NCBI GenBank assembly: GCA_038886195.1
Contig: JAVZYK010000001.1
Location: forward strand, 529,106 to 593,105
DNA: 64,000 nt
Source: Candidatus Pacearchaeota archaeon
GTDB taxonomy: Archaea > Nanobdellota > Nanobdellia > Pacearchaeales > UBA284
Direction: 5' to 3'
The translations under genes were made by a program, and so were the position numbers. Under the pieces are notes generated by a model. That model had not been told where the DNA came from, searched no databases, and saw nothing but the letters and a program-made list of their open reading frames with translations. Below are positions 4,049 to 55,758 of this stretch, piece after piece. Every line of letters starts with the position of its first letter. The first letter of the stretch is position 1.

Positions 4049-6340
4049 TTATATTTTTTTTCTCTTTATTTCATGTTCTAGCCAGGTTTGCCATTCTTTG
4101 AAAACGCGTTTGCCTTCTGGTAAACCTATTTCTTGCCTTACTTTGTCGCTAATTTCATGAAAAGCATTGTTGCTTTTAACTACAAAAGGAGCTTCTAGTA
4201 ATTCTGGCATTTTCAATTTGATGCTTGTTTCTACAAGCAATTGTTTGATTTTCGCTCTCAATAATATATTATCCCAAACAGCATCCCACGAACCAGCCCA
4301 ACCTTTGACTTGGCCTGCAATTTCTTTAAGAACTTCTGATTCTCCATTAATTAAATCATCTGTAGCAACAAGCTCATCTTTTGTAACATCATATTTTAAA
4401 AGATCTACAAAACCATGCTCTGTTGAAGGATCTATAGACCAATGTTTTCTTACTTCTGTAAGCTGTAACATACGACGCCATCTATGTAAGCCATCAGGAC
4501 TTTTTATAGGGTTTACTATAATTATGATGTCTGTTGCCTTAAAGCTTGTTGGGGGAACTTTTAAATCATTAACAACTCTGTCAAATACGCCATAAGGAGA
4601 AGCTCCATGAATTGTTCCTGCTACAACATTGGCCAATGCTCCAACTCTCATAGCTTCATAAAGGCTTAGAGCTTCTTCGCTTCTGACTTCACCAACTATC
4701 AAAGCAGAGTCTCCAAGTCTTAAACTTGTTCTTATTCCTTCTGCTGCGCTTAGCTCTGTAGATTCTTTTGTTAAAGCTTCTCTAACTTTCATTCTTAAGA
4801 TGTCATAATTCAACTCTCGCATCGAATCTACAGGCAATTCTAAAGTTCCTTCACAAACTATAATTCTGTAACGAGGCATAATTTCAAGCATGCAAGCCTG
4901 AAGCATTGAGGTTTTACCAGAACTTCTAGTTCCTGCTATTAACATTGTTCTTGAGCCATCTATTAAGAAAGATAGCAAGCCAGCTGCAAGAGGATTTAAC
5001 ATTCTGTTTTTAATATAAAGAGGTAAAGTCCATGGTTTTTCTCTATGCCTTCTAAATGCATAAGCCAAACCATAGGGCGACAAAGGTTGCTGAATTATTG
5101 CAACTCTCGCTCTTGCAGTTCCTATAACAAGTTCTGTATCAAGAACTGGATTGGCTTCATCAAGAGGCCTGCCAGACATCATTCTAAATTTGGCAGCCCA
5201 TGATTCGGCATCTTCATGTGATGGAATGATGTTTGTATCACATTCATCAAAATCTTGATGTCTAACAAATATTGGTACAGAACCTATGGGAGCATTTATA
5301 ACAATATCTTGAAGTTTTTCATCTTGCATTAACACTTCTATTAATCCAAAACCAATTGTATGTCTTACAAGTATAGTGGCCAATTTATTTAGTTGTCTAT
5401 AGCTAAGATTGATTTTTTTCGTTTCACTTAGTTCTTGTAATAAGTCGCGAGAAATATTAAAAAAAACCTGTCTTATGCGTGCAGGATCGGTAAATTCTTC
5501 TGCTTTTGGTTTATGTTCTAACAAAACATTTCTTGCTATATTTATTAGAGTTTGCAAATCTTCATTCAAGGTGAATTCAGGAGCCATAAGGTGATATAGA
5601 TATTTAGTGGAATTGGGAACTTTCAAGATAGTTACAGTGCTTTTATCATGTTCTGGTCCTATTTCATATTCATCAATAATTTCTGCTTCAGATGGCATTG
5701 AAGCCATTAGTCTTGTGAATGTAAAGTTCGGAACAATTTCGGGCCTGAAAAGTTCAGCATATAAGCTTCTATCTCCTAATTTATAGCCCAGTAGCTTGTC
5801 GGAAACCTGTTTTATTAAAGTGAGGTTGCTTAACATATTTACTATTTTTGTTAAAAGCCGAATATAATGATTTTCACAAGCAAGTTCTGTTGCTGAAGCT
5901 TTTTTTGCGGCAATTCTTTCTTCTCTTAACAATCTTTTAGCTTCTACATAACATCCTATAGGATCTTGTTTTAAAAGAGTTAAAATAAGATAACGCATGG
6001 TATCATAGCGTTGGGCTAAGTGCATTTTGCATTTATAAGGCTCAAGAGTAGTGGTAGAAAGAACTTTTTCTTGTTTGAGAAGATGGACGTAAAGTTGTGC
6101 TATTTCGTTTAGAAGGAAAACTTGTCTAGAATCATAGCTATAATTTCTTTGTTGTACAAAAACTATTCTTGTAACGCTTGGAGCTTCTATAAGATAGTCT
6201 ATTGTTCGAGCCATCACCACTGGCAAATCTGCTATACTTGGAACATAGGGAGCGCCCAAATAATTGACATACATCACATCTTGTCCGGCTTCTCGAACAA
6301 CTTCATAAGCATAAAGTTTTGTACTTTCTTTAAAAATCAT
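4049..6340 (-). CDS. Type II/IV secretion-family ATPase (GspE/FlaI/PilB-like; pilus assembly ATPase)
   Basis: Walker A 'AGTRSSGKTS', Walker B/Asp box 'GDSALIVGEVRSEEA', His box 'NVVAGTIHGASPYGVFDRV'. 763 aa with a long N-terminal domain. Confidence 0.85.
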   Translation of the reverse strand: MIFKESTKLYAYEVVREAGQDVMYVNYLGAPYVPSIADLPVVMARTIDYLIEAPSVTRIVFVQQRNYSYDSRQVFLLNEIAQLYVHLLKQEKVLSTTTLEPYKCKMHLAQRYDTMRYLILTLLKQDPIGCYVEAKRLLREERIAAKKASATELACENHYIRLLTKIVNMLSNLTLIKQVSDKLLGYKLGDRSLYAELFRPEIVPNFTFTRLMASMPSEAEIIDEYEIGPEHDKSTVTILKVPNSTKYLYHLMAPEFTLNEDLQTLINIARNVLLEHKPKAEEFTDPARIRQVFFNISRDLLQELSETKKINLSYRQLNKLATILVRHTIGFGLIEVLMQDEKLQDIVINAPIGSVPIFVRHQDFDECDTNIIPSHEDAESWAAKFRMMSGRPLDEANPVLDTELVIGTARARVAIIQQPLSPYGLAYAFRRHREKPWTLPLYIKNRMLNPLAAGLLSFLIDGSRTMLIAGTRSSGKTSMLQACMLEIMPRYRIIVCEGTLELPVDSMRELNYDILRMKVREALTKESTELSAAEGIRTSLRLGDSALIVGEVRSEEALSLYEAMRVGALANVVAGTIHGASPYGVFDRVVNDLKVPPTSFKATDIIIIVNPIKSPDGLHRWRRMLQLTEVRKHWSIDPSTEHGFVDLLKYDVTKDELVATDDLINGESEVLKEIAGQVKGWAGSWDAVWDNILLRAKIKQLLVETSIKLKMPELLEAPFVVKSNNAFHEISDKVRQEIGLPEGKRVFKEWQTWLEHEIKRKKI

Positions 6341-11067: not shown

Positions 11068-11871
11068 TTATTCTAAAATAAATTCTAATTTAATCGGCTC
11101 AAATTTTATGTTGTTATTTTCTATAAAGAAAAAAGCTCTTTTTGTTTTAAGATTAAAAAAGTAATAATTGTTTTGTTTTTCAACTTTAACATTCCAATTT
11201 TCAAAATTTAAATTTTTGAAACAATCTTCATTTTCATTGCATTTTGATTTTTCTTCCATGATTTTATCATATATTTTTAAAAAATCATTAAGATATATTC
11301 CTTGTTCTTCAAGTTTAGTATTTATTGTTTGTTCTTTCGAAAGAATTATATCATAGTTAACAAAAATTCCTTTCTTTTCTATTTCAATAGTTGCCGGTTC
11401 ATTTTTTGATATTATGATATTTTCTTGCTCATTGAAAATGTGAGTGTAATTTTGCCTTAATTTTTCATTAGGGTATGATTTTATTAGAAAATCAAAACTT
11501 TTGTTAAATTCCTCTAGGAATGCTTTTTTGATGTATTCTGTTTCTGGTTTACATTCTAGATTCCAAATTGGTAAATGCGTTTCTGGTTCTATTTTGCAAG
11601 CTGATTTTTTTTCTACAGCGCCATTTTTTGCTATAATATGGAATGCTTGCGACGCCGCAAGCTTTTTTGTTTCTTCTATATATAAAGAAAATCTGTCTTG
11701 CTCATTGTAAATGCTTGTTAAAATTGGAAGCAATTCAATTTCTGTGGCTACATTTTTATTTGTTGTAGAAAATGCAAACCAGGCAGTAACTATAAAAATT
11801 ATCGTTGCTAAAACCATTCCTGCCGCAAAAATTCCAGCTTTTCTATTTTTCATTTTATTCTTTAATTTCAA
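11068..11871 (-). CDS. Membrane-anchored extracellular protein; possible pilin-like N-terminus
   Basis: 'MKLKNKMKNRKAG|IFAAGMVLATIIFIVTAWFAF': basic segment, small residue, then a hydrophobic helix, resembling a class III signal. Confidence 0.35.
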   Translation of the reverse strand: MKLKNKMKNRKAGIFAAGMVLATIIFIVTAWFAFSTTNKNVATEIELLPILTSIYNEQDRFSLYIEETKKLAASQAFHIIAKNGAVEKKSACKIEPETHLPIWNLECKPETEYIKKAFLEEFNKSFDFLIKSYPNEKLRQNYTHIFNEQENIIISKNEPATIEIEKKGIFVNYDIILSKEQTINTKLEEQGIYLNDFLKIYDKIMEEKSKCNENEDCFKNLNFENWNVKVEKQNNYYFFNLKTKRAFFFIENNNIKFEPIKLEFILE

Positions 11872-12352
11872 GATTTGCTATTATAGTTTCATTTGAAGGA
11901 ATATAAAAAAAAGAACCTTTGTATTTTAAGTAAGGTACGAAAATTATTGAAGGGCCGGCCAATGTTGGTTTAAATGTTAGTTTAGTTAAATCTTCTAGTT
12001 TCAATATATCGAATTTATAGTCATAAATATTAAAAGCTGAACTTTCTTGTTCTAAAATGGCTTTATAAGTAGAATTTATTTTTGAAAGTATTATTAGTTC
12101 TGCGATGGTTAAATTTTGTTCTTCGTTATTAAATATTATTGTTACTGGTTTTTGAAGCCAGGATTGTAACGACAAGTGTTCTTGATTATGAATTGATTGT
12201 TCTTCTGAAGATTTTTTAATTTCAGTTACAGCTCCTCCCCAAAACACTTTTGATAATACGAAAAATATTATTAAAAGAACAATTATTATGGCGGCTCCTA
12301 CAACATCTTGGAGAGCTTCTCCTATTTGCCCTTTCTTATTCGTTCTTTTCAT
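11855..12352 (-). CDS. Type IV pilin-like protein (class III signal peptide)
   Basis: 'MKRTNKKG|QIGEALQDVVGAAIIIVLLIIFFVL' closely resembles archaeal prepilin/archaellin signals (KKGQIG...). Confidence 0.55.
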   Translation of the reverse strand: MKRTNKKGQIGEALQDVVGAAIIIVLLIIFFVLSKVFWGGAVTEIKKSSEEQSIHNQEHLSLQSWLQKPVTIIFNNEEQNLTIAELIILSKINSTYKAILEQESSAFNIYDYKFDILKLEDLTKLTFKPTLAGPSIIFVPYLKYKGSFFYIPSNETIIANLEIKE

Positions 12353-12354
12353 TT

Positions 12355-12825
12355 TTATAGATTCTTTTCAGTTTTTCTTATTGCTATAAATATTTTTGCT
12401 GTTGAAAGTTTTTGTTGGTTTAAAACCAAATATTTTGTTTCTGAGCAACTAGGATATGTTTTTATGTTAACTTTTTTTTCTTTTGCTTCACATAGGGTGG
12501 CTAAAAAACTTTTTCCAGTTTCTATAGAATTATCATCAAGAGTTAATTTGATATATAATTCATTTTCATTTATTGGAATGCAGTCAGTTAAATTCTTAAT
12601 TTCTATGTTATTATTGATAATGCCTTTAGGAGCTATACATTCTATAATTTTTCTAGAAATTGCTGCTGTTTCTAGAGGTCTAACATCTAATTGTCTAGAA
12701 TAATGAGATATCACAATAGCTACTACTCCGCCTATTACCAATACAAGAAGAATAAATTTCCAAAGCCAACTAATTCCATGGCCTAGCTGCGCTTTCTTTT
12801 CTTTAAATATAAATTTTATTTTCAT
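12355..12825 (-). CDS. Membrane-anchored protein, possibly pilin-like
   Basis: 'KEKKAQLGHGISWLWKFILLVLVIGGVVAIV': basic stretch followed by a hydrophobic helix. Confidence 0.35.
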   Translation of the reverse strand: MKIKFIFKEKKAQLGHGISWLWKFILLVLVIGGVVAIVISHYSRQLDVRPLETAAISRKIIECIAPKGIINNNIEIKNLTDCIPINENELYIKLTLDDNSIETGKSFLATLCEAKEKKVNIKTYPSCSETKYLVLNQQKLSTAKIFIAIRKTEKNL

Positions 12826-13172
12826 TTTATTTCAATTACAGTTATATTGCCTTTTGATGTAAATATGACATTATCTTGCAAATAACAAGGATAAATATAA
12901 CCAGGATCGAAAGAACCTTCTCTAATTATGATGTCTGTTCTTTTTTTTTCTATTGAAATTTTTTTATCGTGTTCTATTATAATGTTTGTTCCAGCTCTTC
13001 CTTGCGCTTCCGTTATTGCAATACACAAATCTTTAGCCAGAATCTGTTTTTTTAATGCCTTGCCAGAAGCTTGACTGTTTATCCAAAAAACTACCATTAT
13101 TAGAATCATTATAATGAAAAACAAGTTAAAGAAAAATTGCCACCCTAATTCAAAACCTCTTTTATTAAACAT
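12822..13172 (-). CDS. Type IV pilin-like protein (class III signal peptide)
   Basis: 'MFNKRG|FELGWQFFFNLFFIIMILIMVV'; 116 aa. Confidence 0.5.
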   Translation of the reverse strand: MFNKRGFELGWQFFFNLFFIIMILIMVVFWINSQASGKALKKQILAKDLCIAITEAQGRAGTNIIIEHDKKISIEKKRTDIIIREGSFDPGYIYPCYLQDNVIFTSKGNITVIEIK

Positions 13173-13273: not shown

Positions 13274-14224
13274 ATGTTAGACTATCGTATTGAAGTTGAA
13301 AATACAAAAAGCACGATAAACGAAATAAATAAAGAAGACTTTGAATTAACGTTCAAAATTAGTTTACCAAAACAAAACTATTTATCAAATATAAAAAAAT
13401 TTTTTGAGACGAGAAAAGAAAATAACCCTTTTTTGAAAAAAAGTTGCTCAGAGGAAATTAAAAAATATGAGAAATGTGTTGAAGAAAAATATTTTGAAGA
13501 AGTAAAAGATGTATTGTTGCAAAGATTAATTTTATCAGATTTTTATATTGAATTGAAAGAAGAATTTGATGAAGAAAAGAATGAAAAAAACCTTCTTGTC
13601 AATATAAAGAGAGAAAATTTTGATAGCTTCTTTAAGTTAAGTTTTTTAATGCCAAGAATAGAGACTAAAAAATCTATTTTTGGTTCTAGTATAAAAAAAG
13701 TTTCTTTACCAGATTTAATTTATTATTATACTCTTTCAGGAACTGGAGATCCTACGGCTGTTGATAAAATAAAAGACGAATATGCGAGAGAAGTTCCGAT
13801 TGCAAAAGAATTTAAAAATTATTTTATTAATGGAGAATGGATTAAAATTAAGGATGTTCAATTAACTGAAGAAAATTTCAAAATAGAAGTTGTTGGAAAA
13901 ATAATGTTTGAAATTTATTATTCGGAACAACTCAAACAAAAATCGCCAAATTTGTCTGATTTAAATGCTTTATTATTTGAAGAAAAAAAGCAGAGCTTGC
14001 TAACAAAACTTGCTTTTGATAATAATTTGTCGCATAAAGTTGAAATAAGAAAAAATGAAATGGAAACGATCGTTAAAAGTAGAAATAAGGATTTTGAAGC
14101 AAAAATTATTTTAGCTCCTAATGCCGATTTTCTACCATTGTTTTTAAGTTTTTATTATTCTATCCATGGTAATGGTAAAAATTTTCATACTTTTTTAAAA
14201 GAGTATTGGCCATCGACAGAATAA
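13274..14224 (+). CDS. Hypothetical protein
   Basis: 316 aa, no TM segment, no recognised motif. Lies inside the pilin-like cluster. Confidence 0.4.
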   Translation: MLDYRIEVENTKSTINEINKEDFELTFKISLPKQNYLSNIKKFFETRKENNPFLKKSCSEEIKKYEKCVEEKYFEEVKDVLLQRLILSDFYIELKEEFDEEKNEKNLLVNIKRENFDSFFKLSFLMPRIETKKSIFGSSIKKVSLPDLIYYYTLSGTGDPTAVDKIKDEYAREVPIAKEFKNYFINGEWIKIKDVQLTEENFKIEVVGKIMFEIYYSEQLKQKSPNLSDLNALLFEEKKQSLLTKLAFDNNLSHKVEIRKNEMETIVKSRNKDFEAKIILAPNADFLPLFLSFYYSIHGNGKNFHTFLKEYWPSTE

Positions 14225-15027
14225 AAATGCCTCTAAAGAGAACATTTTATAAATACGGAAGTAATAAAATAAATAAAATACAATTAAAGCAAGAATCAAA
14301 AAATCACAAAATAAAAAATTTTTTATTAACTGCTTTTGCTTTTTGTACTATTGGAGTTGTTGCTTATTTGGCGTGGCCGAAAACTAAAGCTAGCGAAGGC
14401 GCTTTTGAAAAAAACAAAATTAATAAAGAAAAGCTTGAACAACAATATGTTTATAAAAAATCGAAAAGAGCTCCTCTAGAAATAAGAATAGATGAAATTA
14501 CATTTAATAATAGTTTACAAAGAAGATATTTAACGACTAGAACTTTAGAAGATGCGGTTATTAAACTAGAAATAGAAGCAACATTTCCTTCTGATGCATA
14601 TGTGTATAGCGATTTTAAAAGTATAAGTGAGCCAAGTTCGAGTGAAATTGAATATATGAGAAATTATTTTATTAATCGTTTTACGCAAAAATTTTCTGAG
14701 GAAGTTCCTTTTTTTATGATTGATTTTTATGTTAATGGCAATAAAGTTCATGAAGAAATAAAATTAAATTTTCCGAACATAGCGGAAAGATCGATATCTT
14801 CTTATCCTAAAGAAATTAAAATAAGAAATAAAAATTTTATTTTAACATGCAATGTAGGAGGAACAATAAATAGAAATATTTATGGAACTGTAGAAACAAA
14901 AATTAGAGAAAGACATTATAATGGCCTAGGAACTTATACTACTTTTTATTATTATGATGTTAAGGGCTACATATTTATAACAAAAAGTTGGCTTAAAGAC
15001 GTGTATATTAGAAAAGAACGTGATTAG
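14206..15027 (+). CDS. Hypothetical membrane-anchored protein
   Basis: Single TM 'FLLTAFAFCTIGVVAYLAW' after a basic N-terminus. Confidence 0.4.
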   Translation: MAIDRIKMPLKRTFYKYGSNKINKIQLKQESKNHKIKNFLLTAFAFCTIGVVAYLAWPKTKASEGAFEKNKINKEKLEQQYVYKKSKRAPLEIRIDEITFNNSLQRRYLTTRTLEDAVIKLEIEATFPSDAYVYSDFKSISEPSSSEIEYMRNYFINRFTQKFSEEVPFFMIDFYVNGNKVHEEIKLNFPNIAERSISSYPKEIKIRNKNFILTCNVGGTINRNIYGTVETKIRERHYNGLGTYTTFYYYDVKGYIFITKSWLKDVYIRKERD

Positions 15028-15039
15028 CAGCCAAATGCA

Positions 15040-15942
15040 TTAAGGAATGCTTTCTATGTTTTGACAATTGGCAACTACGTCTTGAGCAGTTAGTGGAGTT
15101 AAAATTATAGCATTACAACCTTTGCGTTCACCTTCACAATGTACTGCAGCAGCATGTCCTGAAGTTAAAAAAGTAATTACATGTCCTGCCGCTTCTGCGG
15201 TCGCCATAATCCATCCAATAACTGGAATTAATTTTACTGCTGATTTTACTCCTATTTTAGTTAAACCTTTAGCTAAAAGACGAGGAACAAAAAAAGCACT
15301 TGTTCCACCCAATCCTATATAATTTTTAATTTCTTCTCCTAAATCTTCTCCCTTTATAGACATAAAGATTATTGCATAATCTTGATTTGTATCTAATTTT
15401 TCTATTTTAATTTCTGTTGGAAGTTCTGCTTTTTCTTCTTGACTAAAATATTCTAAATAAGTTAAATTTTTTGATGGAATTTTTGTTCGTTCAAGAAAAC
15501 TTAACAAATCGATTTGTTTTCTTTTAGCCTTTTCATCAAATCTAATTATTGAGCATATAATACAATTTGCTTTTGCAGTTCCCTTTCCTGGAACCCCCCA
15601 CTCACGCCAACCGCTTTCCGAGAAAAACTGCATTTTGCCTTCACCCAGCATCCACCAGCAATCATACATAGCATTTGCTATTTCTCTTTTAATGAAATCT
15701 TCATTAGTGGAACTAATTGTTATTTCTTGAGTTTTACAGTTTAAAGGAATTGTTTCTGGAAGCATTCCTTCTCCTCTTAAAATTGCATTATTTCTTAAAA
15801 TTACAGAATTTCTACAAGCTTCTTTATCAACAGTTTCTTTATAAGGTAGTGCTTTTAGGAAAAAGAAAATTATTGCAGCAATTAGGAGAACTATGATTAT
15901 GCCTATTAACATTGATTGAACTGTTACGCCTCTTTTATTCAT
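15040..15942 (-). CDS. Pilin-like secreted protein, Cys-containing
   Basis: 'MNKRG|VTVQSMLIGIIIVLLIAAIIFFFL' class III-like signal. The 300-aa body has 8 Cys. Confidence 0.45.
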   Translation of the reverse strand: MNKRGVTVQSMLIGIIIVLLIAAIIFFFLKALPYKETVDKEACRNSVILRNNAILRGEGMLPETIPLNCKTQEITISSTNEDFIKREIANAMYDCWWMLGEGKMQFFSESGWREWGVPGKGTAKANCIICSIIRFDEKAKRKQIDLLSFLERTKIPSKNLTYLEYFSQEEKAELPTEIKIEKLDTNQDYAIIFMSIKGEDLGEEIKNYIGLGGTSAFFVPRLLAKGLTKIGVKSAVKLIPVIGWIMATAEAAGHVITFLTSGHAAAVHCEGERKGCNAIILTPLTAQDVVANCQNIESIP

Positions 15943-15999
15943 AAATTTTATAAATAAAAAAGGATTAATAAATTTAATGATAATTTAACTGAATAAAAA

Positions 16000-16668
16000 A
16001 TGGGGAAAATTGGTTGTTTTAGTTTATTGACTTTAATAGCTGGTGGCATTTTGGCTGCAAGTTATTGGATAGGAATTTTACAAGATTTAAAATATGAAAT
16101 TATTTTGCCTTCTAGAGGACGTTTAGCTAAGCGCAAAATAGAAAGCAAACTTAATGCAGACTGTTTCGAAAGATATTGGGAATATGGAAAAACTTATTGT
16201 GAAGGAGGCAAAGTCAGCGGAAACTATTATTTTATTTATTTTAAAAAAAATCCTGATTTTTTAGAACCTTTTTTTGGAAAATTTAATATCATTGATATCA
16301 AATTTCCTAAAGCCAATACTCTTGATGAGGCATTTATGTATGTTTCAGATATGTTGTCTAACAAGATTTTGGGTATTGAAAGAAGAATTTCAGAAGAGAA
16401 ATTATCCGTTTTAGAAAAAGAGATTAGAAACTCTGGAATTACTCCAGAAATCGAAACAGAATTGTTTAAAATTTTTAATCCATTTTTGGGAGAAGAAAAA
16501 ACAAGAAGAATTATTGATATCGCCACTGATGAAAATTTATCTGCAGAAGAAGCGACAAAGAGATTTATAGATGAAGTTCCAACTAATTTAAGTTCAGAAG
16601 AAGAAAAATTTGTCAAAGACGTTGTGAAAAAAATATTAGAACATCCTAAAGTAAAAGAAAATTATTAA
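16000..16668 (+). CDS. Hypothetical membrane-anchored protein
   Basis: N-terminal TM 'FSLLTLIAGGILAASYWIGIL'; 222 aa. Confidence 0.4.
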   Translation: MGKIGCFSLLTLIAGGILAASYWIGILQDLKYEIILPSRGRLAKRKIESKLNADCFERYWEYGKTYCEGGKVSGNYYFIYFKKNPDFLEPFFGKFNIIDIKFPKANTLDEAFMYVSDMLSNKILGIERRISEEKLSVLEKEIRNSGITPEIETELFKIFNPFLGEEKTRRIIDIATDENLSAEEATKRFIDEVPTNLSSEEEKFVKDVVKKILEHPKVKENY

Positions 16669-17003
16669 ATTCTATAACGATATTTTAGTTTGCTCTTCAT
16701 AATGGGATGCGAGACTAATGGAATTCCTGAGAAGTCAAAAGCGCTATTGGAATAGGCAATAGGCTATTTAAGCTATACTGAGGCTTTATGATAAAAAAAA
16801 GCAATCTTTATAAGCGGCATTGTTACAGGTGCTGAAGGAAGATTATTGAGTAATACAAATTTACAGATACTCTCGTTGTTAGAGAAGAAGATGGAAAATT
16901 ATATTATTCCAAAACGTTTAAGTAAAAATAAAATTGCAGATCCGATTAAAACGAAAAGTAAAATTATTATTATCAGTTTAACAAGAGTTTGAGTTTCCAT
17001 TTT

Positions 17004-18116
17004 CTATGAAATAGCGGCCTTCACTTTTTGAAGATAATCTAAACCTTTGAAAGATTTGCAATTTTCAACTTCTAAAGGAACACAATACTTTTCAACCATA
17101 GAGGGACCTGTATTGTAAGCCATCACTCCTAACTCCCAATCTTTAAATTTATCTATCATTGAAATCAAATGTCTTGTGCCGACATCAATATTCTTTGCTT
17201 CATCAAAACGTTCATCCAAAGCAATAAGTTCTTCTTTTGTTTTTGTATTTTTTAAATTTTTCAATTCTGTAACATAATCAGTTTTTAAATAGTTTAAAAT
17301 TTCGTCACTCCATCTTGCTTCTAGAGGGGTGTTTTTTATCTTATCATTTGGATCATAAATTTTTAATCCAAAATCTAAAGCGACTTGAGGCATTAATTGC
17401 ATCAATCCAACTTCACCAGTTGTGCCAATAGCATTCCAAGAACCTTGAGATTCAATTGTAATGATTGCTTTAATTAATTTTTCAAATTCTTGTTCATTGG
17501 CTATGTAGTTTTTATCTTTAATTTGAGGATAGTATTTTTTTACTATTTCGGTTATAATAGAGTTATAATTTTTTTCAATTATTTGATTAGTCTGTTTTAA
17601 TTGAAGTTGAATTTCTGCTTTTTCTTCTTCTGTTAAAGATATTGGAATGGTTGGTTTTATTTTGCTTACATTGTAGTATTCTTTCATATTGGTTAACCAT
17701 ATCTCGCTAATTTGAATTTGTATTATAGCAAGCTCATTATCTTTTTTTAAAGGCAATTTTATTGTTTGGCAAATTTTACATTCTTTTTTTTCACAAATGC
17801 AAAGAATGTTTTGCTGAAAATATTTAGAAGGTTTGATATAGTCTTTGTTTTTGTTGTGTTGAGTATCGAAAGCAACTATATGCCAACCTATTGGAGCATA
17901 AAGAAAATAATTTTTAGATTCAGCTTCTGTTAAGTTATTTAAAATTTGAGTTAGTCTATCTAAAGTGCCTTTTGCTTGCATTTCTTTTTGTTTGCCAAAA
18001 TAAGTTGCGAAAAGCCTTTGAGCAGCAAAAATTAAAATGATTATTATCATTATAGCAAGAATTATTTCTAAAATTTGTTTTAAACCCCATTCGTCACCTT
18101 TTTTGTTAATATTCAT
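17004..18116 (-). CDS. Lytic transglycosylase (SLT/GH23 domain) with pilin-like class III signal peptide
   Basis: N-terminus 'MNINKKG|DEWGLKQILEIILAIMIIIILIF'. The C-terminal domain 'IESQGSWNAIGTTGEVGLMQLMPQVA ... VMAYNTGPSMV' matches the SLT catalytic-region motifs (E-S ... GLMQ ... AYN.G). Confidence 0.7.
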   Translation of the reverse strand: MNINKKGDEWGLKQILEIILAIMIIIILIFAAQRLFATYFGKQKEMQAKGTLDRLTQILNNLTEAESKNYFLYAPIGWHIVAFDTQHNKNKDYIKPSKYFQQNILCICEKKECKICQTIKLPLKKDNELAIIQIQISEIWLTNMKEYYNVSKIKPTIPISLTEEEKAEIQLQLKQTNQIIEKNYNSIITEIVKKYYPQIKDKNYIANEQEFEKLIKAIITIESQGSWNAIGTTGEVGLMQLMPQVALDFGLKIYDPNDKIKNTPLEARWSDEILNYLKTDYVTELKNLKNTKTKEELIALDERFDEAKNIDVGTRHLISMIDKFKDWELGVMAYNTGPSMVEKYCVPLEVENCKSFKGLDYLQKVKAAIS

Positions 18117-18152: not shown

Positions 18153-18332
18153 TTAAGGTTTAATTTGGGTTTCATTCCATAAGCCAAATGTAATTTTTAT
18201 TCTAGTCATTAAATTTGCAATAACTTCTTTCATTGTTCCAGAAAAAATTAATAGAATTACAATTAGAGCCACTAAAGCTAAAATTATAATTATGATTGTA
18301 TTGATAGAGAGTTCTGCGGCCTTTTTGTTCAT
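18153..18332 (-). CDS. Small type IV pilin-like protein
   Basis: From the internal Met: 'MNKKA|AELSINTIIIIILALVALIVILLIF'. Paralogous to the N-terminus of the 18338..18721 product. The track ORF extends to 18371 but would then overlap the upstream gene. Confidence 0.45.
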   Translation of the reverse strand: MNKKAAELSINTIIIIILALVALIVILLIFSGTMKEVIANLMTRIKITFGLWNETQIKP

Positions 18333-18337
18333 CTTTT

Positions 18338-18721
18338 TTATTCTGAAGGAGGATAACCAAGCTCTTCGCACCTTTCTCTCGTAGCTATCGTTATTTCCTT
18401 ATTTGTGGCAGGGTCGATGTATTTTAGTTTCGCTTCTATTGGCTTTTCGAAACAGTAAAAGTAATCTGTAGTTTTGTTTACTGTATTGTAAAGAGGTTGT
18501 TTTACTTGACAAAAAGTTTCTATTGTTGCTTGGGAACAATAGTCTTTTACAATTCTAATTCTATCACCACCATAAACTTGATAAGCTGTTTTTATGCTTC
18601 CAAAAAGATTTTGTAAGCCTCCAGTAAACCACAATACTAAAACTACGAGCACTACTATGGCTAAAATTATTATAATCACTGTTGTAACATTTATTTCTAC
18701 GGCTTTTTTATTTATTTTCAT
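18338..18721 (-). CDS. Type IV pilin-like protein (class III signal peptide)
   Basis: 'MKINKKA|VEINVTTVIIIILAIVVLVVLVLWF'; 127 aa. Confidence 0.5.
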   Translation of the reverse strand: MKINKKAVEINVTTVIIIILAIVVLVVLVLWFTGGLQNLFGSIKTAYQVYGGDRIRIVKDYCSQATIETFCQVKQPLYNTVNKTTDYFYCFEKPIEAKLKYIDPATNKEITIATRERCEELGYPPSE

Positions 18722-18787: not shown

Positions 18788-19357
18788 TTAACTGCCGCAC
18801 ATTCTAATGTCAACCTCGGTTGTCGGTTTATTTGAAATTAAAAAGTAGAGGGCATCTTCTTTTTTGTAAACTAAATTGCTAACAACATAATATTTATTTT
18901 TTTCAACTCCTGTTTGCAAAAATAATGGAGGTTCGGTTTTCCAGTCTATAGTTTTTGTCGGTACTAAATGTAGTGGCTTGTTCGTTTCTATTATTTGTGC
19001 TTTTGTTAATAAATTATCTATTGTAGCGTTTTTGTGAATTTTTTTATCATAAGTTAATTCTAAAATAGTTGATTTTCCTACAGTTCTAATTACTAGTTTA
19101 TAATTTTTTGCAAAAGTGGCAGGCCAAGAAGGAAAAACTTCGCAGACGCAATCGTTTTCTTTTAATGAATTACATCTTTCTATATTTTCTACCATTATGT
19201 CAAAATTACTTTTACTTGCTTCTTCTGCTTCTTTTGGTAAACTTGCAATTAAGCCAATACCTTTTAGAAGCTCTTTTCCTGGGCCAAAGAATAAAATATA
19301 AATTACGACAAGAATTATAACTAGTCCTAAAATCCATTTTATGATTGTCCAAATCAT
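18788..19357 (-). CDS. Membrane-anchored extracellular protein
   Basis: N-terminal TM 'IIKWILGLVIILVVIYILFF'; 189 aa. Confidence 0.4.
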   Translation of the reverse strand: MIWTIIKWILGLVIILVVIYILFFGPGKELLKGIGLIASLPKEAEEASKSNFDIMVENIERCNSLKENDCVCEVFPSWPATFAKNYKLVIRTVGKSTILELTYDKKIHKNATIDNLLTKAQIIETNKPLHLVPTKTIDWKTEPPLFLQTGVEKNKYYVVSNLVYKKEDALYFLISNKPTTEVDIRMCGS

Positions 19358-19566
19358 TTTAAGCTATCTTCCAAATCTTATAAAGTCTTTTATCCATTCA
19401 ATTAAATTAGAGCCCTGTTTTTTTAACAAAATTGCTAGAGCAAATAAAAAGGCAAGAACTATTATGGCAATTATCCAAGCAACAACTTCCCATTCAATGC
19501 CTCTTTTCATGCAAATATGTTTCATAAAACAACAATGTTTTTTAACTTTAAAAATTTAATTAGATC

Positions 19567-20334: not shown

Positions 20335-22500
20335 CTAAATAATTCCCGAAATAGCAACTGCCGCAAGAGCGCCGAGGGCTATTATTGCCATAAAAGCAGC
20401 TATAACATACAAAGTTATGCCAGTCATAAGCATTTTACTTATTTGATATTTTTCACTTAATCTATCTTCTCCCGATTCTATTGTTACAAGAGTCTGTGTT
20501 AAAATAAATATTATTTCAATAAGATAAATACCAACAATTATTTGAAGCCAATAAGGAGGAATCATTTTTACTACATTAAACATAGAGGTTATCATTCCAA
20601 CATTGCCAAAACCAGCTATAGTTTGCTCAGCACTTAATTCGCCACTCTCGATCATTAATTGTAAAGTTCCAAGAATGATTGTAATCATACTTGCCAATCC
20701 AACAACTATTGCTGCAAGCAAAGGAGCAAGAAAAGTCATGTTACTTTTCATACCGCTTGTTATTTCTGCCAACAGATCTTTAAGCCTTTCATTTACTTTA
20801 TGAATATTTTTAACATAATCGCTTATTGCCATTAGGGCTCTTGCCGCAACTTGCAAACCTTTTTTTACTGATTCTATCAAAATTTGCATACTGGTTCTTA
20901 GTAGCTCAGAAGGATAATAGTTTATAGCTCCTCTAGATTTATTGAATATTGCTTCTTCTACACTCATGCCTGCTTGTTGAATATTTATGTTAACTGTGTT
21001 AAAAAAGCCCGCGGCCGGAGTGCCTTTAAGGCTATAGGCAACTCTTCCGAATGCCATTTCTGCAGGAATGCCGTCTGCAAGCCTATTGCCTAGTTGAAAA
21101 ATAGCAGAAGAGAATTCCTGTTCTAGTGTTTTTGTTTGATTTCTAACAATTATGAGTTTTTGTGTTTTTAATTTATACGCTATAGCAAAGAAAAGTGCAA
21201 TTGAAAGAGGAATAAAGATGCTTAAAAGCAACGCTATAGGGCCAAAAGGTCCTACAGTAGCATCAGTCTCAGGATCTACTTTAAAGTCAAATATTGTTTG
21301 ATTTCCAAAAAAACTTAAGCCTAGTTGTTCGAAACTGTAGTCTGATTGTATGCCTAAAGCATCAGCCATGCCATAATGTAAAAGTAATGGCAGAATTCCA
21401 AGAATAAAGAAAGGCAAAGCAATAATGGCTGCCGTGAAATAGTGGCTTTTATCTTGATAATTTCTGTATTCTGGATTTCTTTCTAAAAGTTCTGTTTCAC
21501 CGAAACCGCCGGGACGTTTACTTAAAATTTGATTTGTCATATAAAAAACAAAAAAAGGAACTATTATGTTAAATAGAAGCGCAACATGATACCATTTAAT
21601 TGCTCCTTGTAATAGTGTAGAAGCAAGAGGCAATAGTGCCAAACCAAGAGTTGGTAAAACTATTCCTAACATGTAGATATTTGTTATTGGTGATTTTACA
21701 TCATGAGTGTAATGCATCATTTTTTCATAAACGCCGTCTAGAATTACTTCAAGCGCTTTTTCAAGTATTGCAATTCTTCTATGTTCATTAGGTTCATAAA
21801 GAGAAGATTCAATCATATGAATAGATTCAACAAATTCCATAGAATAATCGCGCCAATTTTCAAGATATGCATCTAGAGCATCTTTTATTGTAGGAAATTT
21901 TGCTGTCTCAACATCCCAAAAAATTTTTTTTAAATCAAGCGACAAAGGCGGTTGTAAATGTTGAGAAGCGAATCTTATTGCTCTTTCTAAATTGCTAGTG
22001 TGTCTCATATAAATGACTATATAAAGAATACAAGAAACCATTTGCGATGATGCTTTTAAACGCCATTTTTGTGCAATTCTCGTAGGCAGTGTGTTAAGAT
22101 AATAAAACAAGAAGAAAGATACAAATAGTAATAACATAAAAAGAAGAAATGGAAAACTTTCAGTAAAGAAAAAAATCGCAACCGATGTGAGAAGAGATAT
22201 TAAAATAGAAACTATAAGAGCAAAGACAGCTAATCCGGCAGCTTCGCTCGGCTCTATTTCAAGATGAGCAGTTTTGAGATCTTTGGATATTCTTTCTTCA
22301 TCTTTAGATGAAAGTTTCAACTTTAAAATTTTACCAAAATTTTTACAAGCTCGCTCATAAGAGCTAAGTGGCGCAAGAGTTTCTGTGCGAAATTTTCTAT
22401 ATTCTACAGAATAATCGCTTGGAGCTTCTTCTCGAAGTTCTTTTTCTATTTTAGTTTCAAATTTTTTCAAAATATCTTTTAGTTCTTCTTTACTAACCAT
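20335..22500 (-). CDS. Polytopic membrane protein, FlaJ/TadC/PilC-like pilus-assembly platform protein (inferred)
   Basis: 721 aa with a cytoplasmic N-terminal helical domain followed by clustered TM helices. The call rests on that topology plus a size typical of archaeal FlaJ-like proteins and the neighbouring pilin and ATPase genes, not on a confirmed GspF domain. Confidence 0.5.
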   Translation of the reverse strand: MVSKEELKDILKKFETKIEKELREEAPSDYSVEYRKFRTETLAPLSSYERACKNFGKILKLKLSSKDEERISKDLKTAHLEIEPSEAAGLAVFALIVSILISLLTSVAIFFFTESFPFLLFMLLLFVSFFLFYYLNTLPTRIAQKWRLKASSQMVSCILYIVIYMRHTSNLERAIRFASQHLQPPLSLDLKKIFWDVETAKFPTIKDALDAYLENWRDYSMEFVESIHMIESSLYEPNEHRRIAILEKALEVILDGVYEKMMHYTHDVKSPITNIYMLGIVLPTLGLALLPLASTLLQGAIKWYHVALLFNIIVPFFVFYMTNQILSKRPGGFGETELLERNPEYRNYQDKSHYFTAAIIALPFFILGILPLLLHYGMADALGIQSDYSFEQLGLSFFGNQTIFDFKVDPETDATVGPFGPIALLLSIFIPLSIALFFAIAYKLKTQKLIIVRNQTKTLEQEFSSAIFQLGNRLADGIPAEMAFGRVAYSLKGTPAAGFFNTVNINIQQAGMSVEEAIFNKSRGAINYYPSELLRTSMQILIESVKKGLQVAARALMAISDYVKNIHKVNERLKDLLAEITSGMKSNMTFLAPLLAAIVVGLASMITIILGTLQLMIESGELSAEQTIAGFGNVGMITSMFNVVKMIPPYWLQIIVGIYLIEIIFILTQTLVTIESGEDRLSEKYQISKMLMTGITLYVIAAFMAIIALGALAAVAISGII

Positions 22501-22947: not shown

Positions 22948-23430
22948 ATGGCCGATGTCCAAATTAGTTTATTTACCCATCCTTTTTTAACAAATTTCTT
23001 ACTTCCATTTTTATTAGTATTTGTTGTTATTTTTGCTATACTTGAAAAGTCTAATGTGCTTGGTGAAGGCAAAAAATATGCTAACTTAATCGTAGCTATA
23101 GTTATAGGATTGCTCTTTATAGGTATGCAAAGTGTTGTTGGTTTTACCATTAAACTTTTGCCTTTAGTAGCAGTGTTGGTGGTTGTTTTACTAGGCTATT
23201 ATATTATTTTCGGCTTTATTGGAATTCATGAAAAGACTGGTTTAAAAATTACTTTAGGCATAGTTTTTGGTTTAGCTTTAATAATTTCAATTTTATGGGC
23301 AACCGGAGTATTGGAAAAGATTGGCGGATCTTTTTCTCCAGAAACTGTTGGAACGATTATTTTTTTAGCTATTTTAGGAGGAGCAATAGCGTTAGTTTTG
23401 ACTACAAAAGTAAAAGAAAAAGGAGAATAA
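22948..23430 (+). CDS. Small polytopic membrane protein, paralog 1 of 3
   Basis: 'FLLPFLLVFVVIFAILEKSNVLGEGKKYANLIVAIVIGLLFIGMQSVV'. This core is shared with the next two genes. Confidence 0.45.
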   Translation: MADVQISLFTHPFLTNFLLPFLLVFVVIFAILEKSNVLGEGKKYANLIVAIVIGLLFIGMQSVVGFTIKLLPLVAVLVVVLLGYYIIFGFIGIHEKTGLKITLGIVFGLALIISILWATGVLEKIGGSFSPETVGTIIFLAILGGAIALVLTTKVKEKGE

Positions 23431-23499: not shown

Positions 23500-24039
23500 A
23501 TGGTGGATGGTTTTTATTTTGGTGGAATGACTGAATTTAGACAAGTTATAGAACAGTGGGCCCAATTTGGTTTGTTCGATGTGCTTTTGCCTTTATTGTT
23601 AGTTTTTACACTTGTTTTTGCAATTTTAGAGAAAATCAACATATTTAAAAATAGAGGAGTTCATCTTGTAATTTCTCTTGTATTGGCATTTTTTGCAATA
23701 ACAAATCCGGTTGTTTCAGTATTTTTTATGTATCTGTTTTCTAATTTGGCAATAGGCGTTGCAATTATATTGGCGATGATCGTGTTAGTTGGTTTTGCAT
23801 TAAAACCAGAAGGAGACACTTGGCAATGGGTTTTCGGAATAGGAGGAGCATTTTTACTTCTCATAGCTTTAGCAAAATCAGGATTTTTTACTTATGTTTT
23901 TGGTCCTAATGCTTGGTATTGGATGCAACAAAATGCTTCATGGATGATTTTACTAATTATAATTGCTCTTGCCGTGATTGGAGTGGTTGTAGGAGTCGGT
24001 GGAGAGAAAGGAAAATCATTTAAAATATCTCAAGAATAA
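23500..24039 (+). CDS. Small polytopic membrane protein, paralog 2 of 3
   Basis: 'LLPLLLVFTLVFAILEKINIFKNRGVHLVISLVLAFFAITNPVV'. Confidence 0.45.
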   Translation: MVDGFYFGGMTEFRQVIEQWAQFGLFDVLLPLLLVFTLVFAILEKINIFKNRGVHLVISLVLAFFAITNPVVSVFFMYLFSNLAIGVAIILAMIVLVGFALKPEGDTWQWVFGIGGAFLLLIALAKSGFFTYVFGPNAWYWMQQNASWMILLIIIALAVIGVVVGVGGEKGKSFKISQE

Positions 24040-32227: not shown

Positions 32228-32315
32228 GCCTCAGTAGCTCAGCGGTAGAGCGGCTGCCTTGTAATATCGAAAACAAGCAAGCAGTAGGTCGAGGGTTCGA
32301 TTCCCTCCTGAGGCT
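32228..32315 (+). tRNA. tRNA-Thr (anticodon TGT) with a ~16-nt intron at the canonical 37/38 position
   Basis: Acceptor GCCTCAG/CTGAGGC, D-arm GCTC-AGCGGTA-GAGC, anticodon stem GCTGC with loop CTTGTA[A], T-arm GAGGG-TTCGATT-CCCTC. The inserted 'ATATCGAAAACAAGCA' contains ACAAG, complementary to the loop's CTTGT, consistent with a bulge-helix-bulge fold. Confidence 0.6.
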
Positions 32316-54191: not shown

Positions 54192-54893
54192 ATGTTAACT
54201 GAAGAACAAGTAGAAGAATTAAGAAAAAGGTTATTGAAGCAACTAGAATTGATGGAAGAAACGGAACAAGTAATGATGCTTAAGGAACAAATTAAAAATG
54301 CCAGCAAAGAGGAGTTGGAGGAATTTATTAAATCTCAGATGGCTGTAGCTAAAGAAAATGTTGATGATGCTGGATGTATTTTTTGTCAAATTGTTAAAGG
54401 AAAAATTGAAACAATAAAGATTTACGAAGATGCCGAAATTATTGCATTTCTTGATATTTATCCAGCTTCTATAGGACATGTGCTTATAATGCCAAAAAAG
54501 CATTTCGAAACTATTGAAGAGATTCCTGATATTTTATTGAGTAAATTGTTTATTTTTATAAAAACAATAATGCCTTCTTTTTTGAAAATAACTAAAGCTA
54601 AAGGTTTTAATATCCTTATTTCACAAGGAGAAAAGGCAGGACAAAGAATAAAGCATTTTTATCTAAATTTAATTCCCCGTTATGACGAAGATAATATAAA
54701 TTTAACTTGGAGTCAACTTAAAGTGGATAAAAAAGAATTGGAAATTCTAGGAGAAAATCTAAGAAAAGAAGCTTTGCGAGAACTAGAGAGTAAGCTCGAA
54801 TATGAAAAAACAAAAGCAGAGAAACGCAAAAAAGCAGAAGAGGAGAGCGAAGTCGAGAAAATAATGAAGCATATTAAAAGAAGATTGCCCTGA
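54192..54893 (+). CDS. HIT-family protein with N-terminal coiled coil and a degenerate histidine triad
   Basis: 'CIFCQIVKGKIETIKIYEDAEIIAFLDIYPASIGHVLIMPKKH' and 'GEKAGQRIKHFYLNLIPRY'. The canonical H-x-H-x-H is replaced by H-F-Y-L-N-L. Confidence 0.7.
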   Translation: MLTEEQVEELRKRLLKQLELMEETEQVMMLKEQIKNASKEELEEFIKSQMAVAKENVDDAGCIFCQIVKGKIETIKIYEDAEIIAFLDIYPASIGHVLIMPKKHFETIEEIPDILLSKLFIFIKTIMPSFLKITKAKGFNILISQGEKAGQRIKHFYLNLIPRYDEDNINLTWSQLKVDKKELEILGENLRKEALRELESKLEYEKTKAEKRKKAEEESEVEKIMKHIKRRLP

Positions 54894-55758
54894 TTAGTAA
54901 TATCAATAAATCGCCAAACAAAATGGTACAAATTAGTGAGATTAGAAATACTGGCACAAAAGGAAGGCCATATTTTATCAGAACTTTTTTATTATGTTTT
55001 TTTAATAAAACAATGTCTCTTTTACTTAAGCCGTGAACACTTGGGTTAATTTTTTGATTTTTTAACTTTATTGGTTGAACAAGCCAGTCACCTTCTGTTA
55101 AATTAGAAGGAGAAACTTTTTTTATCATGCTTGTATTTTCAGCAGCTTTTATTGTAATGTAAATGTATGGAAAAGTCAAAGTTAAAATAAAAATTAAAAA
55201 GAAAACATTAAAGAAAAAGGAAATTATTAAAGAAATTGAAGCAAGAATCAAAAAAGAAGTTCTTAATGTTTTTGTTTGATCGAATATTTTTTTAAATTCT
55301 TTAGAAAATTTCTTTTTATTTTTAATTGCAAAGAAAATAACGAAAATAATGCTATAAATGGAACCTATTGTAAAAATGTTGATTAAAAAACCCAATAAGA
55401 ATGGCTCTGAGAAAATATTGACTTGGTTAGGCGTGGTTTTTGATAAATATAAGGGAGTTGTAGCAAAAGCTATTGCTAGAGCAATAAGAAGTTTGGCATC
55501 GCCACCACCAAAAAATTTAGTATAATAAAGGATAGCGCTTAAAGAAAAAAATAGTACGAGAGAAATAATGGCATAAACAAAATAATAAAATTGCAACGTT
55601 ATTAGGGCCGCAAGTCCTCTAATTGTTAGTGCAATTGCTATTAATGAAAAACTTAGCCAATTAGGAACCTCTCTTTTTTTAATATCTGTAATCGAAGCAA
55701 AAATAAGATATGCTGCAGTGATTATTAAAAGCAAAATATCGCTTATTAAAAGGTCCAT
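54874..55758 (-). CDS. A24-family prepilin peptidase (PibD/FlaK/EppA-like)
   Basis: First catalytic Asp region 'ASITDIKKREVPNWLSF', second Asp in 'KFFGGGDAKLLIALAIAF' (the GGGD.KL motif). Polytopic, with a C-terminal extracytoplasmic extension. Confidence 0.6.
   Translation of the reverse strand: MDLLISDILLLIITAAYLIFASITDIKKREVPNWLSFSLIAIALTIRGLAALITLQFYYFVYAIISLVLFFSLSAILYYTKFFGGGDAKLLIALAIAFATTPLYLSKTTPNQVNIFSEPFLLGFLINIFTIGSIYSIIFVIFFAIKNKKKFSKEFKKIFDQTKTLRTSFLILASISLIISFFFNVFFLIFILTLTFPYIYITIKAAENTSMIKKVSPSNLTEGDWLVQPIKLKNQKINPSVHGLSKRDIVLLKKHNKKVLIKYGLPFVPVFLISLICTILFGDLLILLIRAIFF

Follow-up and report, generated by a model that had tools for sequence, protein, structure and literature searches.

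Known murein hydrolases and modular pilins

Glycoside hydrolase family 23 (GH23) lytic transglycosylases cut the bond between N-acetylmuramic acid (MurNAc) and N-acetylglucosamine (GlcNAc) in bacterial murein, and archaea are without murein. We consider a gene for such an enzyme at 17004..18116 on the minus strand of a 64,000-nucleotide stretch of Candidatus Pacearchaeota DNA (contig JAVZYK010000001.1, positions 529,106 to 593,105), which we call the window. Its 370-aa product carries a lytic transglycosylase as a head on an N-terminal carrier module that begins like an archaeal prepilin, and the gene lies in a conserved cassette of pilin-like genes. The original prediction, made from the letters of this DNA, implied that a murein-cleaving enzyme in an archaeon is a surprise. 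This part has to be given up, since GH23 murein transglycosylases have been reported repeatedly from Pacearchaeota and Woesearchaeota and taken to indicate that these archaea interact with bacteria (Castelle et al. 2021, PMC8204110; Vigneron et al. 2022, PMC9723730; PMC11537232; PMC10936187). PMC8204110 in turn cites Rinke 2013 and Castelle 2015 on archaeal murein transglycosylases. A more recent survey (Strock et al. 2025, PMC12352652) finds archaeal peptidoglycan hydrolases to be most diverse in Nanoarchaeota and reports two haloarchaeal enzymes that kill a bacterium; it required a peptidoglycan (PG)-binding domain and sought Sec and Tat signals alone, and 32% of its enzymes had one.

The present locus resembles the known hydrolases of archaea, DPANN archaea included, in its bacterial-type GH23, GH73, amidase and peptidase domains, which are especially frequent in Nanoarchaeota, Pacearchaeota and Woesearchaeota and have been read as anti-bacterial. 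The published archaeal sets consist of large SLT proteins (up to 3000 aa) or of modular hydrolases that combine a catalytic domain with a PG-binding domain and a Sec or Tat signal, whereas the window protein has no PG-binding domain, has a class III-like N-terminus, and falls outside the modular class as defined by Strock et al. 2025. Pilins and class III signals are not mentioned in PMC8204110, PMC9723730, PMC11537232, PMC10936187 or PMC12352652, and a 2026 survey devoted to type IV filament (TFF) systems in archaea (preprint 10.64898/2026.04.22.720090) does not mention peptidoglycan or transglycosylases. Murein hydrolases of DPANN archaea are known already, while the fusion to an N-terminal carrier and its genomic context appear to be unreported in the literature searched. 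A prepilin-type carrier in a conserved cassette would provide a concrete delivery route, and two-thirds of the enzymes in the 2025 survey are without a recognised export signal. Few DPANN lineages are as widespread as Pacearchaeota and Woesearchaeota, and the carrier family bears on the question of who their partners are and how they interact with them.

The closest mechanistic analogue is the bacterial modular pilin. The PilB and PilC pilins of Streptococcus sanguinis (Raynaud et al. 2021, PMC8179133) are likewise built from a carrier, a short linker and an effector; there too the carrier also occurs effector-free, many effectors are found on one carrier, and display at the tip is predicted. 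The present proteins differ in their archaeal host, in a [KR][KR]G/A leader that does not have the IPR012902 motif, and in a beta-domain that matches no solved pilin. Their effectors are murein hydrolases, whereas the words peptidoglycan, transglycosylase and hydrolase occur 0 times in the main text of that paper, and filament incorporation is something that we infer here.

Within the archaea the closest system is the bindosome of Sulfolobales (BasEF), in which an extracellular functional protein also follows a prepilin-type leader and a hydrophobic helix and in which assembly is attributed to a TFF machine (preprint 10.64898/2026.04.22.720090). The cargo of the bindosome, however, is made up of substrate-binding proteins encoded beside ABC transporters, whereas the cargo here is lytic enzymes encoded inside a pilin-like cassette of DPANN archaea. 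The VirB1, EtgA, BfpH and FlgJ/SltF enzymes are similar in that an SLT enzyme is encoded inside a cluster of genes for a filament or for a secretion machine. Those enzymes cut the sacculus of their own cell and are Sec-exported soluble proteins or lipoproteins, while the head considered here is fused to a carrier in a murein-free producer.

The lytic transglycosylase head

The 370-aa open reading frame (ORF) begins with an ATG that is the earliest possible start after a stop codon, and the N-terminus of the product reads MNINKKGDEWGLKQILEIILAIMIIIILIF. We divide the gene as follows, using a full-length AlphaFold2 (AF2) model, domain searches and an alignment of 21 full-length homologues with 28-72% identity, on which all conservation statements for this protein rest.

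17004..18116, minus strand: gene of the bimodular protein, pilin-like carrier plus lytic transglycosylase head, 370 aa; last gene of a five-gene run
17652..18116, minus strand: carrier module, residues 1-155, consisting of leader, long helix and four-Cys beta-domain (AF2, phmmer)
18096..18116, minus strand: leader MNINKKG, a putative signal of class III (prepilin type); cleavage is predicted to follow Gly7 (motif conservation)
17934..18092, minus strand: residues 9-61, a single 53-residue alpha-helix, hydrophobic in its N-terminal half and amphipathic in its C-terminal half (AF2 and alignment)
17565..17651, minus strand: linker, residues 156-184, partly helical (163-183) and rich in Glu, Lys and Gln (AF2 model)
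17007..17564, minus strand: family-1 GH23 (SLT) domain, residues 185-370 (Pfam, Foldseek, motifs)
17451..17453, minus strand: codon of the catalytic Glu222 in the E-S motif, invariant in 21 of 21

The model, built on this alignment, has a mean predicted local distance difference test (pLDDT) score of 90.4 and places, in this order, the helix 9-61, the strands of the beta-domain (67-151), the helical linker 163-183 and the SLT domain.

The head matches Pfam SLT (PF01464) with 67.8 bits (E=7.8e-19); the gathering cutoff is 21.3, and a lineage-specific insertion of about 45 residues divides the match into two parts. Glu222-Ser223, G237, Q240, A333 and G337 are invariant in the homologues, and L238 and Y334 are conserved in at least 90%, so that the GLMQ and AYNxG motifs are represented along with the E-S motif; Y361 is also invariant or nearly so, and C345 and C353 form a conserved Cys pair within the domain. 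A Foldseek search with the C-terminal half of the model returns MltD, Slt70, MltE, Cj0843 and MltC with probability 1.0 and E-values of 8e-5 to 1e-3. Judged by sequence and by the predicted model, the head is a genuine lytic transglycosylase domain of family-1 GH23 type whose active site is intact, and the family assignment and the catalytic Glu named in the original prediction hold up under profile search, alignment and fold comparison.

Other searches place the head less closely. The best NCBIfam match is the flagellar-assembly lytic transglycosylase (E=4.8e-7, 29 bits, far under its cutoff of 234). A single-sequence search of the PDB with the whole protein gives only weak matches, the best being the SLT region of a phage tape-measure protein (E=0.006), next to MltE (0.35), and a homology search with the SLT domain alone, in which 120 candidates were considered, yields one protein. 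The Pfam scan of the 370-aa protein finds SLT alone and no LysM, SH3 or PG_binding domain.

One carrier with exchangeable heads

We turn to the N-terminal part. It had been described as a signal peptide, and the leader motif agrees with that description; what was overlooked is that residues 1-155 form a whole module. The AF2 pLDDT of this module is 87.9. Three of its cysteines, C106, C108 and C116, do not vary in either family alignment and C113 is invariant in the 21 SLT forms, while four Cys columns are at least 90% conserved in an alignment of 145 carriers. A phmmer search with residues 1-160 against 1.84 billion cluster representatives finds at least 373 proteins at E<=1e-3. The tallies of tails given below are based on 170 of these 373 carrier representatives, and those of leaders on 169.

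No tail is present in 79 of the 170 carriers, which stand alone at 115-235 aa (mostly 140-200 aa; some may be fragments), and the other 91 carry tails of 77-220 aa. The tails are assigned by Pfam as follows.

SLT: 31 clusters
Glucosaminidase/GH73: 12 clusters
VanY/Peptidase_M15: 6 clusters
3D domain: 5 clusters
Amidase_2: 4 clusters
No Pfam match: 32 clusters

One carrier thus occurs alone and, through a linker, fused to five annotated head families and to unannotated tails, as in a modular protein. Residues 1-155 are a recurrent carrier with interchangeable heads and more than a signal peptide. The exchange of heads shows in four homologues that were found with the full-length protein: in P0022 to P0025 the first ~150 residues are 54-64% identical to the SLT protein, but the C-terminus is GH73 (PF01832) instead of SLT. 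When the carriers alone are compared, the GH73 protein P0024 is nearest to the SLT protein P0012 (64%), the SLT protein P0013 is nearest to the bare carrier P0027 (59%), and the nearest neighbours of the GH73 protein P0029 are a bare form and SLT forms. Since similarity between carriers is interleaved with head type, the heads have been exchanged, gained or lost several times. The tails that Pfam leaves blank (32 of the 90 carriers with tails of at least 80 aa) fall into several unrelated clusters, including P0085, P0051, P0074, P0108, P0071, P0088, P0114 and others, and are candidates for new effector heads, possibly novel wall-active enzymes.

The next question is what the heads have in common. 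The five families act on the glycan strand from either side, on the MurNAc-L-Ala amide and on the D-Ala end of the stem peptide. Bacterial murein is their sole common substrate, which supports an external, murein-bearing target and is hard to reconcile with any other substrate; the target proposed originally on the SLT head is in this way supported by four further enzyme families, in orthologous loci as well as on one carrier. We consider it very probable that bacterial murein is the target and that the enzyme is exposed at the cell surface. One slot that holds any of five murein-bond specificities, or none, also amounts to a natural experiment.

GH23 also covers chitinases and g-type lysozymes. 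A non-murein substrate could accordingly be chitin, pseudomurein from a methanogen host or a glycan on an archaeal surface, and Foldseek does list the GH23 chitinase of Ralstonia sp. A-471 (E about 1e-2); known hosts of DPANN have so far been archaea (PMC8204110). The best structural matches, however, like each of the four sequence motifs, belong to family-1 lytic transglycosylases, the four other heads share bacterial murein alone as substrate, and an M23 peptidase is encoded nearby. We regard a non-murein substrate as improbable.

The M23 peptidase is a second murein-directed enzyme of the window. Its gene (37084-44448, plus strand) encodes a 2454-aa protein with a Sec-type signal, MKRIVLIFFVVLFSIVLIRAQ, and with Peptidase_M23 at residues 1886-1987 (E=1.7e-27). 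Just upstream, at 35172-37040 on the plus strand, a 622-aa gene product has a class III-like N-terminus, KKA followed by QVSLFIIIAIVIV, and no Pfam match.

A conserved cassette of pilin-like genes

The hydrolase gene closes a tight, co-directional run of five genes (48, 189, 127, 59 and 370 aa) that are separated by 6, 66, 5 and 36 nt. Nine co-directional ORFs between 11068 and 19510 start with M-x(1-10)-[KR][KR]-[G/A] and a hydrophobic helix, so that the expected position among pilin-like genes is confirmed and widened to a cassette. A hidden Markov model (HMM) of the N-terminal part of the carrier module matches the neighbours at 18153 (8e-5), 18338 (1e-4) and 19364 (6e-4) and no other membrane protein of the window. 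In the list below a slash marks the end of the leader motif.

19364..19510, minus strand: pilin-like protein of 48 aa, MKRG/IEWEVVAWII...FIRFGR, opening the five-gene run; conserved in the cassette
18788..19357, minus strand: N-terminally anchored protein of 189 aa without a KG motif, with an NIExC...D motif; conserved in the cassette
18338..18721, minus strand: pilin-like protein of 127 aa, MKINKKA/VEINVTTVIII...; conserved in the cassette
18153..18332, minus strand: helix-only pilin-like protein of 59 aa, MNKKA/AELSINTIIII...; candidate Flp/Epd-like major subunit
15040..15942, minus strand: pilin-like protein of 300 aa, MNKRG/VTVQSMLIGIII..., downstream of the hydrolase slot; conserved
11068..13172, minus strand: four successive pilin-like genes (116, 156, 165 and 261 aa), M..[KR][KR][G/A] plus hydrophobic helix, kept beside RPA and RadA across loci

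In the window, as in the loci L001, L003, L005, L006 and L007, the 59-aa gene stands directly upstream of the hydrolase gene, and L011 has an 82-aa counterpart. Its product is a candidate for an Flp/Epd-like major subunit, a role that we assign from these features.

The order of genes extends well beyond the five-gene run. It reads SRP54, small proteins with five transmembrane (TM) segments, a ~720-aa membrane protein, a ~50-aa pilin-like protein, a ~200-aa anchored protein, a ~120-aa pilin-like protein, the ~59-aa helix-only protein, the carrier slot, a ~300-aa pilin-like protein, four pilin-like proteins, RPA and RadA, and then a FlaI/TadA-like ATPase where the flank reaches that far (window, L001). 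This order is found again in L001, L003, L005, L007/L008 and L011; L006, L012 and L013 have part of it. A scan of genome contigs with the carrier profile, confined to one narrow peptide pattern, returned 2 loci. What changes from locus to locus is the content of the carrier slot.

SLT head: window and L001
GH73 head: L003 and L005
Amidase_2 head: L006, with the small-gene core only and no 720-aa protein or RPA/RadA nearby
3D domain: L011
VanY/M15 head: L012, a partial cassette with the 720-aa protein outside the sampled flank
Bare 157-aa carrier: L007 and L008
Unannotated tail: L013 (8001-9089), near Peptidase_A24

Further linkage comes from contigs of equal size that carry a hydrolase and the 720-aa membrane protein. 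There are eight such pairs, one of which is the L003 contig: P0012/P0178 (73461), P0013/P0190 (91665), P0014/P0185 (27030), P0016/P0199 (8253), P0017/P0191 (21132), P0022/P0183 (28776), P0023/P0177 (40113) and P0025/P0187 (29210). Between loci the membrane protein is 81-82% identical and the carrier protein 56-63%; the machine is conserved, the effector fast-evolving.

The window is archaeal and belongs to DPANN. It encodes RadA/Rad51 (317 bits), TFIIB, an RPA-like OB-fold protein, SRP54 and FtsY of archaeal type, FtsZ, eIF2-alpha and Spt5-NGN, its GC content is about 30%, its 721-aa membrane protein has a 100% identical match in a 'Candidatus Pacearchaeota archaeon' metagenome-assembled genome, and the labels on homologues of the SLT protein read Candidatus Nanoarchaeia, Pacearchaeota or Woesearchaeota. 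The archaeal origin of the more distant members of the carrier family is judged from gene context.

In that its delivery part stays constant while glycosidases, amidases and peptidases are shuffled as heads, the family resembles phage endolysins, tape-measure and tail-associated lysins and the murein effectors of type VI secretion systems. It differs from phage lysins in that the best phage relative has at most 40% identity over a third of the domain, with none for the carrier, and in that many genomes have the gene in the core of the chromosome, between SRP54 and RadA. A prophage endolysin, which we had considered, is rejected because of this conserved core-genome synteny, and a recent phage origin because tblastn against phages gave only distant SLT matches and none for the carrier.

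An enzyme encoded within a filament gene cluster also invites a comparison with VirB1, EtgA, BfpH and FlgJ, specialised transglycosylases that open the wall of the producing cell for its own filament. By analogy the window enzyme could serve the same purpose. Archaea outside Methanobacteria and Methanopyri are, however, without a murein-type wall (PMC12352652), headless orthologous cassettes exist (L007, L008), and the Amidase_2 and VanY/M15 heads are directed at MurNAc-L-Ala and D-Ala bonds that are absent from S-layers and pseudomurein. Murein synthesis genes were not seen among the ORFs of at least 120 aa profiled in the 64-kb window. A self-directed role is scarcely credible. Among candidates for the target of the family, pseudomurein and the producer's own wall are rejected on the strength of the amidase and D-Ala-peptidase heads.

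Two kinds of gene in or beside the cassette call for separate mention. Three paralogues (22948-23430, 23500-24039 and 24087-24569, all plus strand), each ~160-180 aa long, predicted to have five TM segments and unmatched in Pfam, lie between SRP54 and the 721-aa membrane protein of the window, and genes of matching size stand there in L001, L003, L005 and L007; they may be part of the same machine. Directly past the hydrolase slot lies the sole opposite-strand gene of the cassette, which in the window (16000-16668, plus strand) encodes 222 aa. It is found in L001 (11200-11544, 114 aa), L003 (10033-10365, 110 aa) and L005 (9153-9503, 116 aa) with varying sequence, and the L005 protein has a lipobox-like FGCSSGG. 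This protein could be a cognate partner of the head or a protein that protects against it.

Leader, candidate machinery and possible filament membership

We next examine whether the N-terminus is that of a prepilin. The residues [KR][G/A/S] stand immediately N-terminal to the hydrophobic helix in 154 of 169 carrier representatives (G in 123, A in 28, S in 3), and Glu peaks at +5 and +6 after the Gly, Ala or Ser in 83 of these 154, counts to which no P-value is attached because the sequences are related by descent. The hydrophobic core begins 0-10 residues past the motif across the family, and many members read [KR]G/ILL[KP]E. The window protein has the short basic leader ending in [KR]-[G/A/S] and then the hydrophobic helix that characterise class III signals: MNINKKG is followed by DEWGLKQILEIILAIM, with a hydrophobic run from about 7 residues after the Gly, inside the family range. 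Among its homologues K5 is invariant, residue 7 is G or A in at least 90%, and Glu17 is invariant. The class III-like architecture that was first noticed in this one protein is thereby recovered as a property of the family and of the clustered window genes. The other exported proteins of the window have Sec-like or lipobox-like N-termini.

The machinery that could process and assemble such a protein is represented by three candidates.

54874..55758, minus strand: Peptidase_A24, of the prepilin/preflagellin peptidase family (PF01478 53.6 bits; FlaK-like 5e-10)
4049..6340, minus strand: secretion ATPase of the FlaI/TadA (T2SSE) family, 763 aa (PF00437 45.6 bits; syntenic in the window and L001)
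20335..22500, minus strand: polytopic membrane protein of 721 aa with 9 predicted TM segments and two large loops (synteny; candidate platform)

The profile match leaves the A24 peptidase as it had been annotated. In NCBIfam the ATPase matches FlaI (1.9e-37) and TadA (5.4e-32), both under the equivalog cutoffs; its conserved core starts at about residue 300, after an N-terminal extension of ~300 residues with no domain match. Orthologues of the 721-aa protein (58-68% identity) carry the JGI label 'Flp pilus assembly protein TadB', and T2SSF homology is not confirmed. In the window the peptidase gene is paired with a HIT-family gene (54192-54893, plus strand, and 54874-55758, minus strand), and the same pair is found in L013 at 13703-15469.

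Several observations weigh against a filament. In the window protein a four-residue insert, DEWG, separates the Gly from the conserved LKQ (LKQILE), which puts acidic residues at +1 and +2 of the putative cleavage site and the invariant Glu (position 17) at +10. The SLT protein and its window neighbours match no curated pilin or class III model (Pfam E<=0.1, NCBIfam E<=1), the sole hints being sub-threshold: PF04021 Class_IIIsignal at E=0.0038 for an L012 cassette member (KKG/QMSIETIII) at the position corresponding to the 127-aa gene, and Flp1_like at E=0.099 for the 59-aa protein. The A24 gene lies 37 kb from the cassette in the window. The 721-aa protein has no match in Pfam, NCBIfam or a PDB profile search. 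T2SSF platform proteins typically show an internal duplication, and a T2SSF-type duplication is not found in the 721-aa protein (hhalign probability 0.7%). Apart from these points, the leader has the [KR]G form of archaea and not GFTLIE, so that it does not agree with the bacterial pilin definition (IPR012902 motif), the carrier beta-domain matches no solved pilin, and the evidence from fold for a pilin is weak. We treat the carrier as pilin-like and as a candidate pilin.

These points would suit an ectoenzyme that keeps its leader as an unprocessed type II signal anchor and acts only at direct cell contact, with the neighbours as co-regulated adhesion genes. The missing pilin HMM match, the weak fold evidence, the acidic DE at +1/+2 of the window orthologue and a platform protein that is only a candidate all favour such an anchor. 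On the other hand, 91% of a family that is otherwise ~30% identical keep [KR][G/A/S], with Glu at +5/+6. A small residue fixed at one site in so divergent a family is expected of a prepilin-peptidase site and not of a plain membrane anchor, which needs no fixed Gly or Ala. Where the slot holds a bare 157-aa carrier there is no enzyme that would need an anchor, the 53-residue helix far exceeds a membrane span, and in the distant locus L013 the cassette adjoins the Peptidase_A24 gene (~4.6 kb). We think the plain anchor unlikely and take the leader to be probably a genuine substrate of a prepilin peptidase. Whether the protein is part of a filament is a question on which we find the evidence evenly balanced.

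A proposed mechanism and its purpose

Taking the pieces together, we lean somewhat towards a variable effector subunit of a conserved type-IV-filament-like cassette, that is, a swappable murein-cutting device displayed against bacteria. We infer the following course of events. The protein would insert into the membrane by its positive-inside N-terminus with the C-terminus outside, a topology consistent with its basic start and with conserved Cys pairs on the extracellular side. The A24 peptidase would then probably trim the leader after Gly7. The hydrophobic helix would dock the protein into a short filament or pseudopilus, probably made of the small helix-only 59-aa subunit, and the bulky head makes the tip the likeliest place. 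On contact with a bacterium the head could cut MurNAc-GlcNAc bonds in its sacculus, and the opened wall might serve attachment, lysis or the extraction of nutrients.

In its most specific form the proposal is an 'enzymatic harpoon', a short TFF-derived pilus whose tip carrier holds an exchangeable murein hydrolase and with which Pacearchaeota and Woesearchaeota breach the wall of a bacterial host or prey. This form we put forward tentatively, with less than even confidence. If true, it would be the first archaeal TFF for enzymatic attack on another domain of life, the head type would track the wall chemistry of the host, and bacteria would be the missing partners of abundant DPANN lineages for which no host is known. 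The carrier family connects the type IV filaments of archaea with antagonism or parasitism between domains. Should this delivery route be confirmed, bacteria would become the likely targets of these archaea, the cassette would become a marker for predicting lifestyle from metagenome-assembled genomes, and the 32 carriers with unannotated tails would be candidates for new wall-active enzymes.

The same architecture could serve a different purpose. Displayed on a bindosome-like pseudopilus or at the surface, the enzymes might digest loose peptidoglycan left by dead bacteria and so provide an auxotroph with amino sugars and amino acids. Archaeal proteins with class III signals include the nutrient-binding proteins of the bindosome (preprint 10.64898/2026.04.22.720090), Pacearchaeota are without amino-acid biosynthesis and dead-cell peptidoglycan has been proposed as a source (PMC11537232), and glycosidase, amidase and peptidase heads would jointly take muropeptides fully apart. 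Yet each sampled genome has one head in the slot and not a full degradative set, no muropeptide transporter is seen beside the cassette, and the rapid turnover of heads is more like the diversification of a weapon or of a host range than like catabolism. None of these three points is decisive, and we find scavenging rather unlikely.

Other features of the window

The remaining features concern genes outside the cassette, together with one variation among the RadA genes that flank it. The L003 RadA (15208-17673, 821 aa) contains an intein (Intein_splicing plus LAGLIDADG), and the window RadA (8965-9936, 323 aa) does not. Two adjacent paralogues at 57240-58181 and 58293-59210, both on the plus strand, have lipobox-like N-termini (...FVSGQEGC and ...FVSGQQGC) and no Pfam match, which suggests that they are lipoprotein-type surface proteins. 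They are followed by an open frame of at least 1409 aa (59772-63998, plus strand) that runs past the end of the window, with a TM segment at the N-terminus and repeats of the NosD/right-handed beta-helix kind (E=3.6e-14); here the GC content rises to 0.385, and the protein is a giant surface protein of a kind typical of DPANN. Finally, a tRNA of 88 nt at 32228-32315 on the plus strand (Rfam 63.9 bits), for which ARAGORN gives no proper anticodon, is probably an intron-containing archaeal tRNA.

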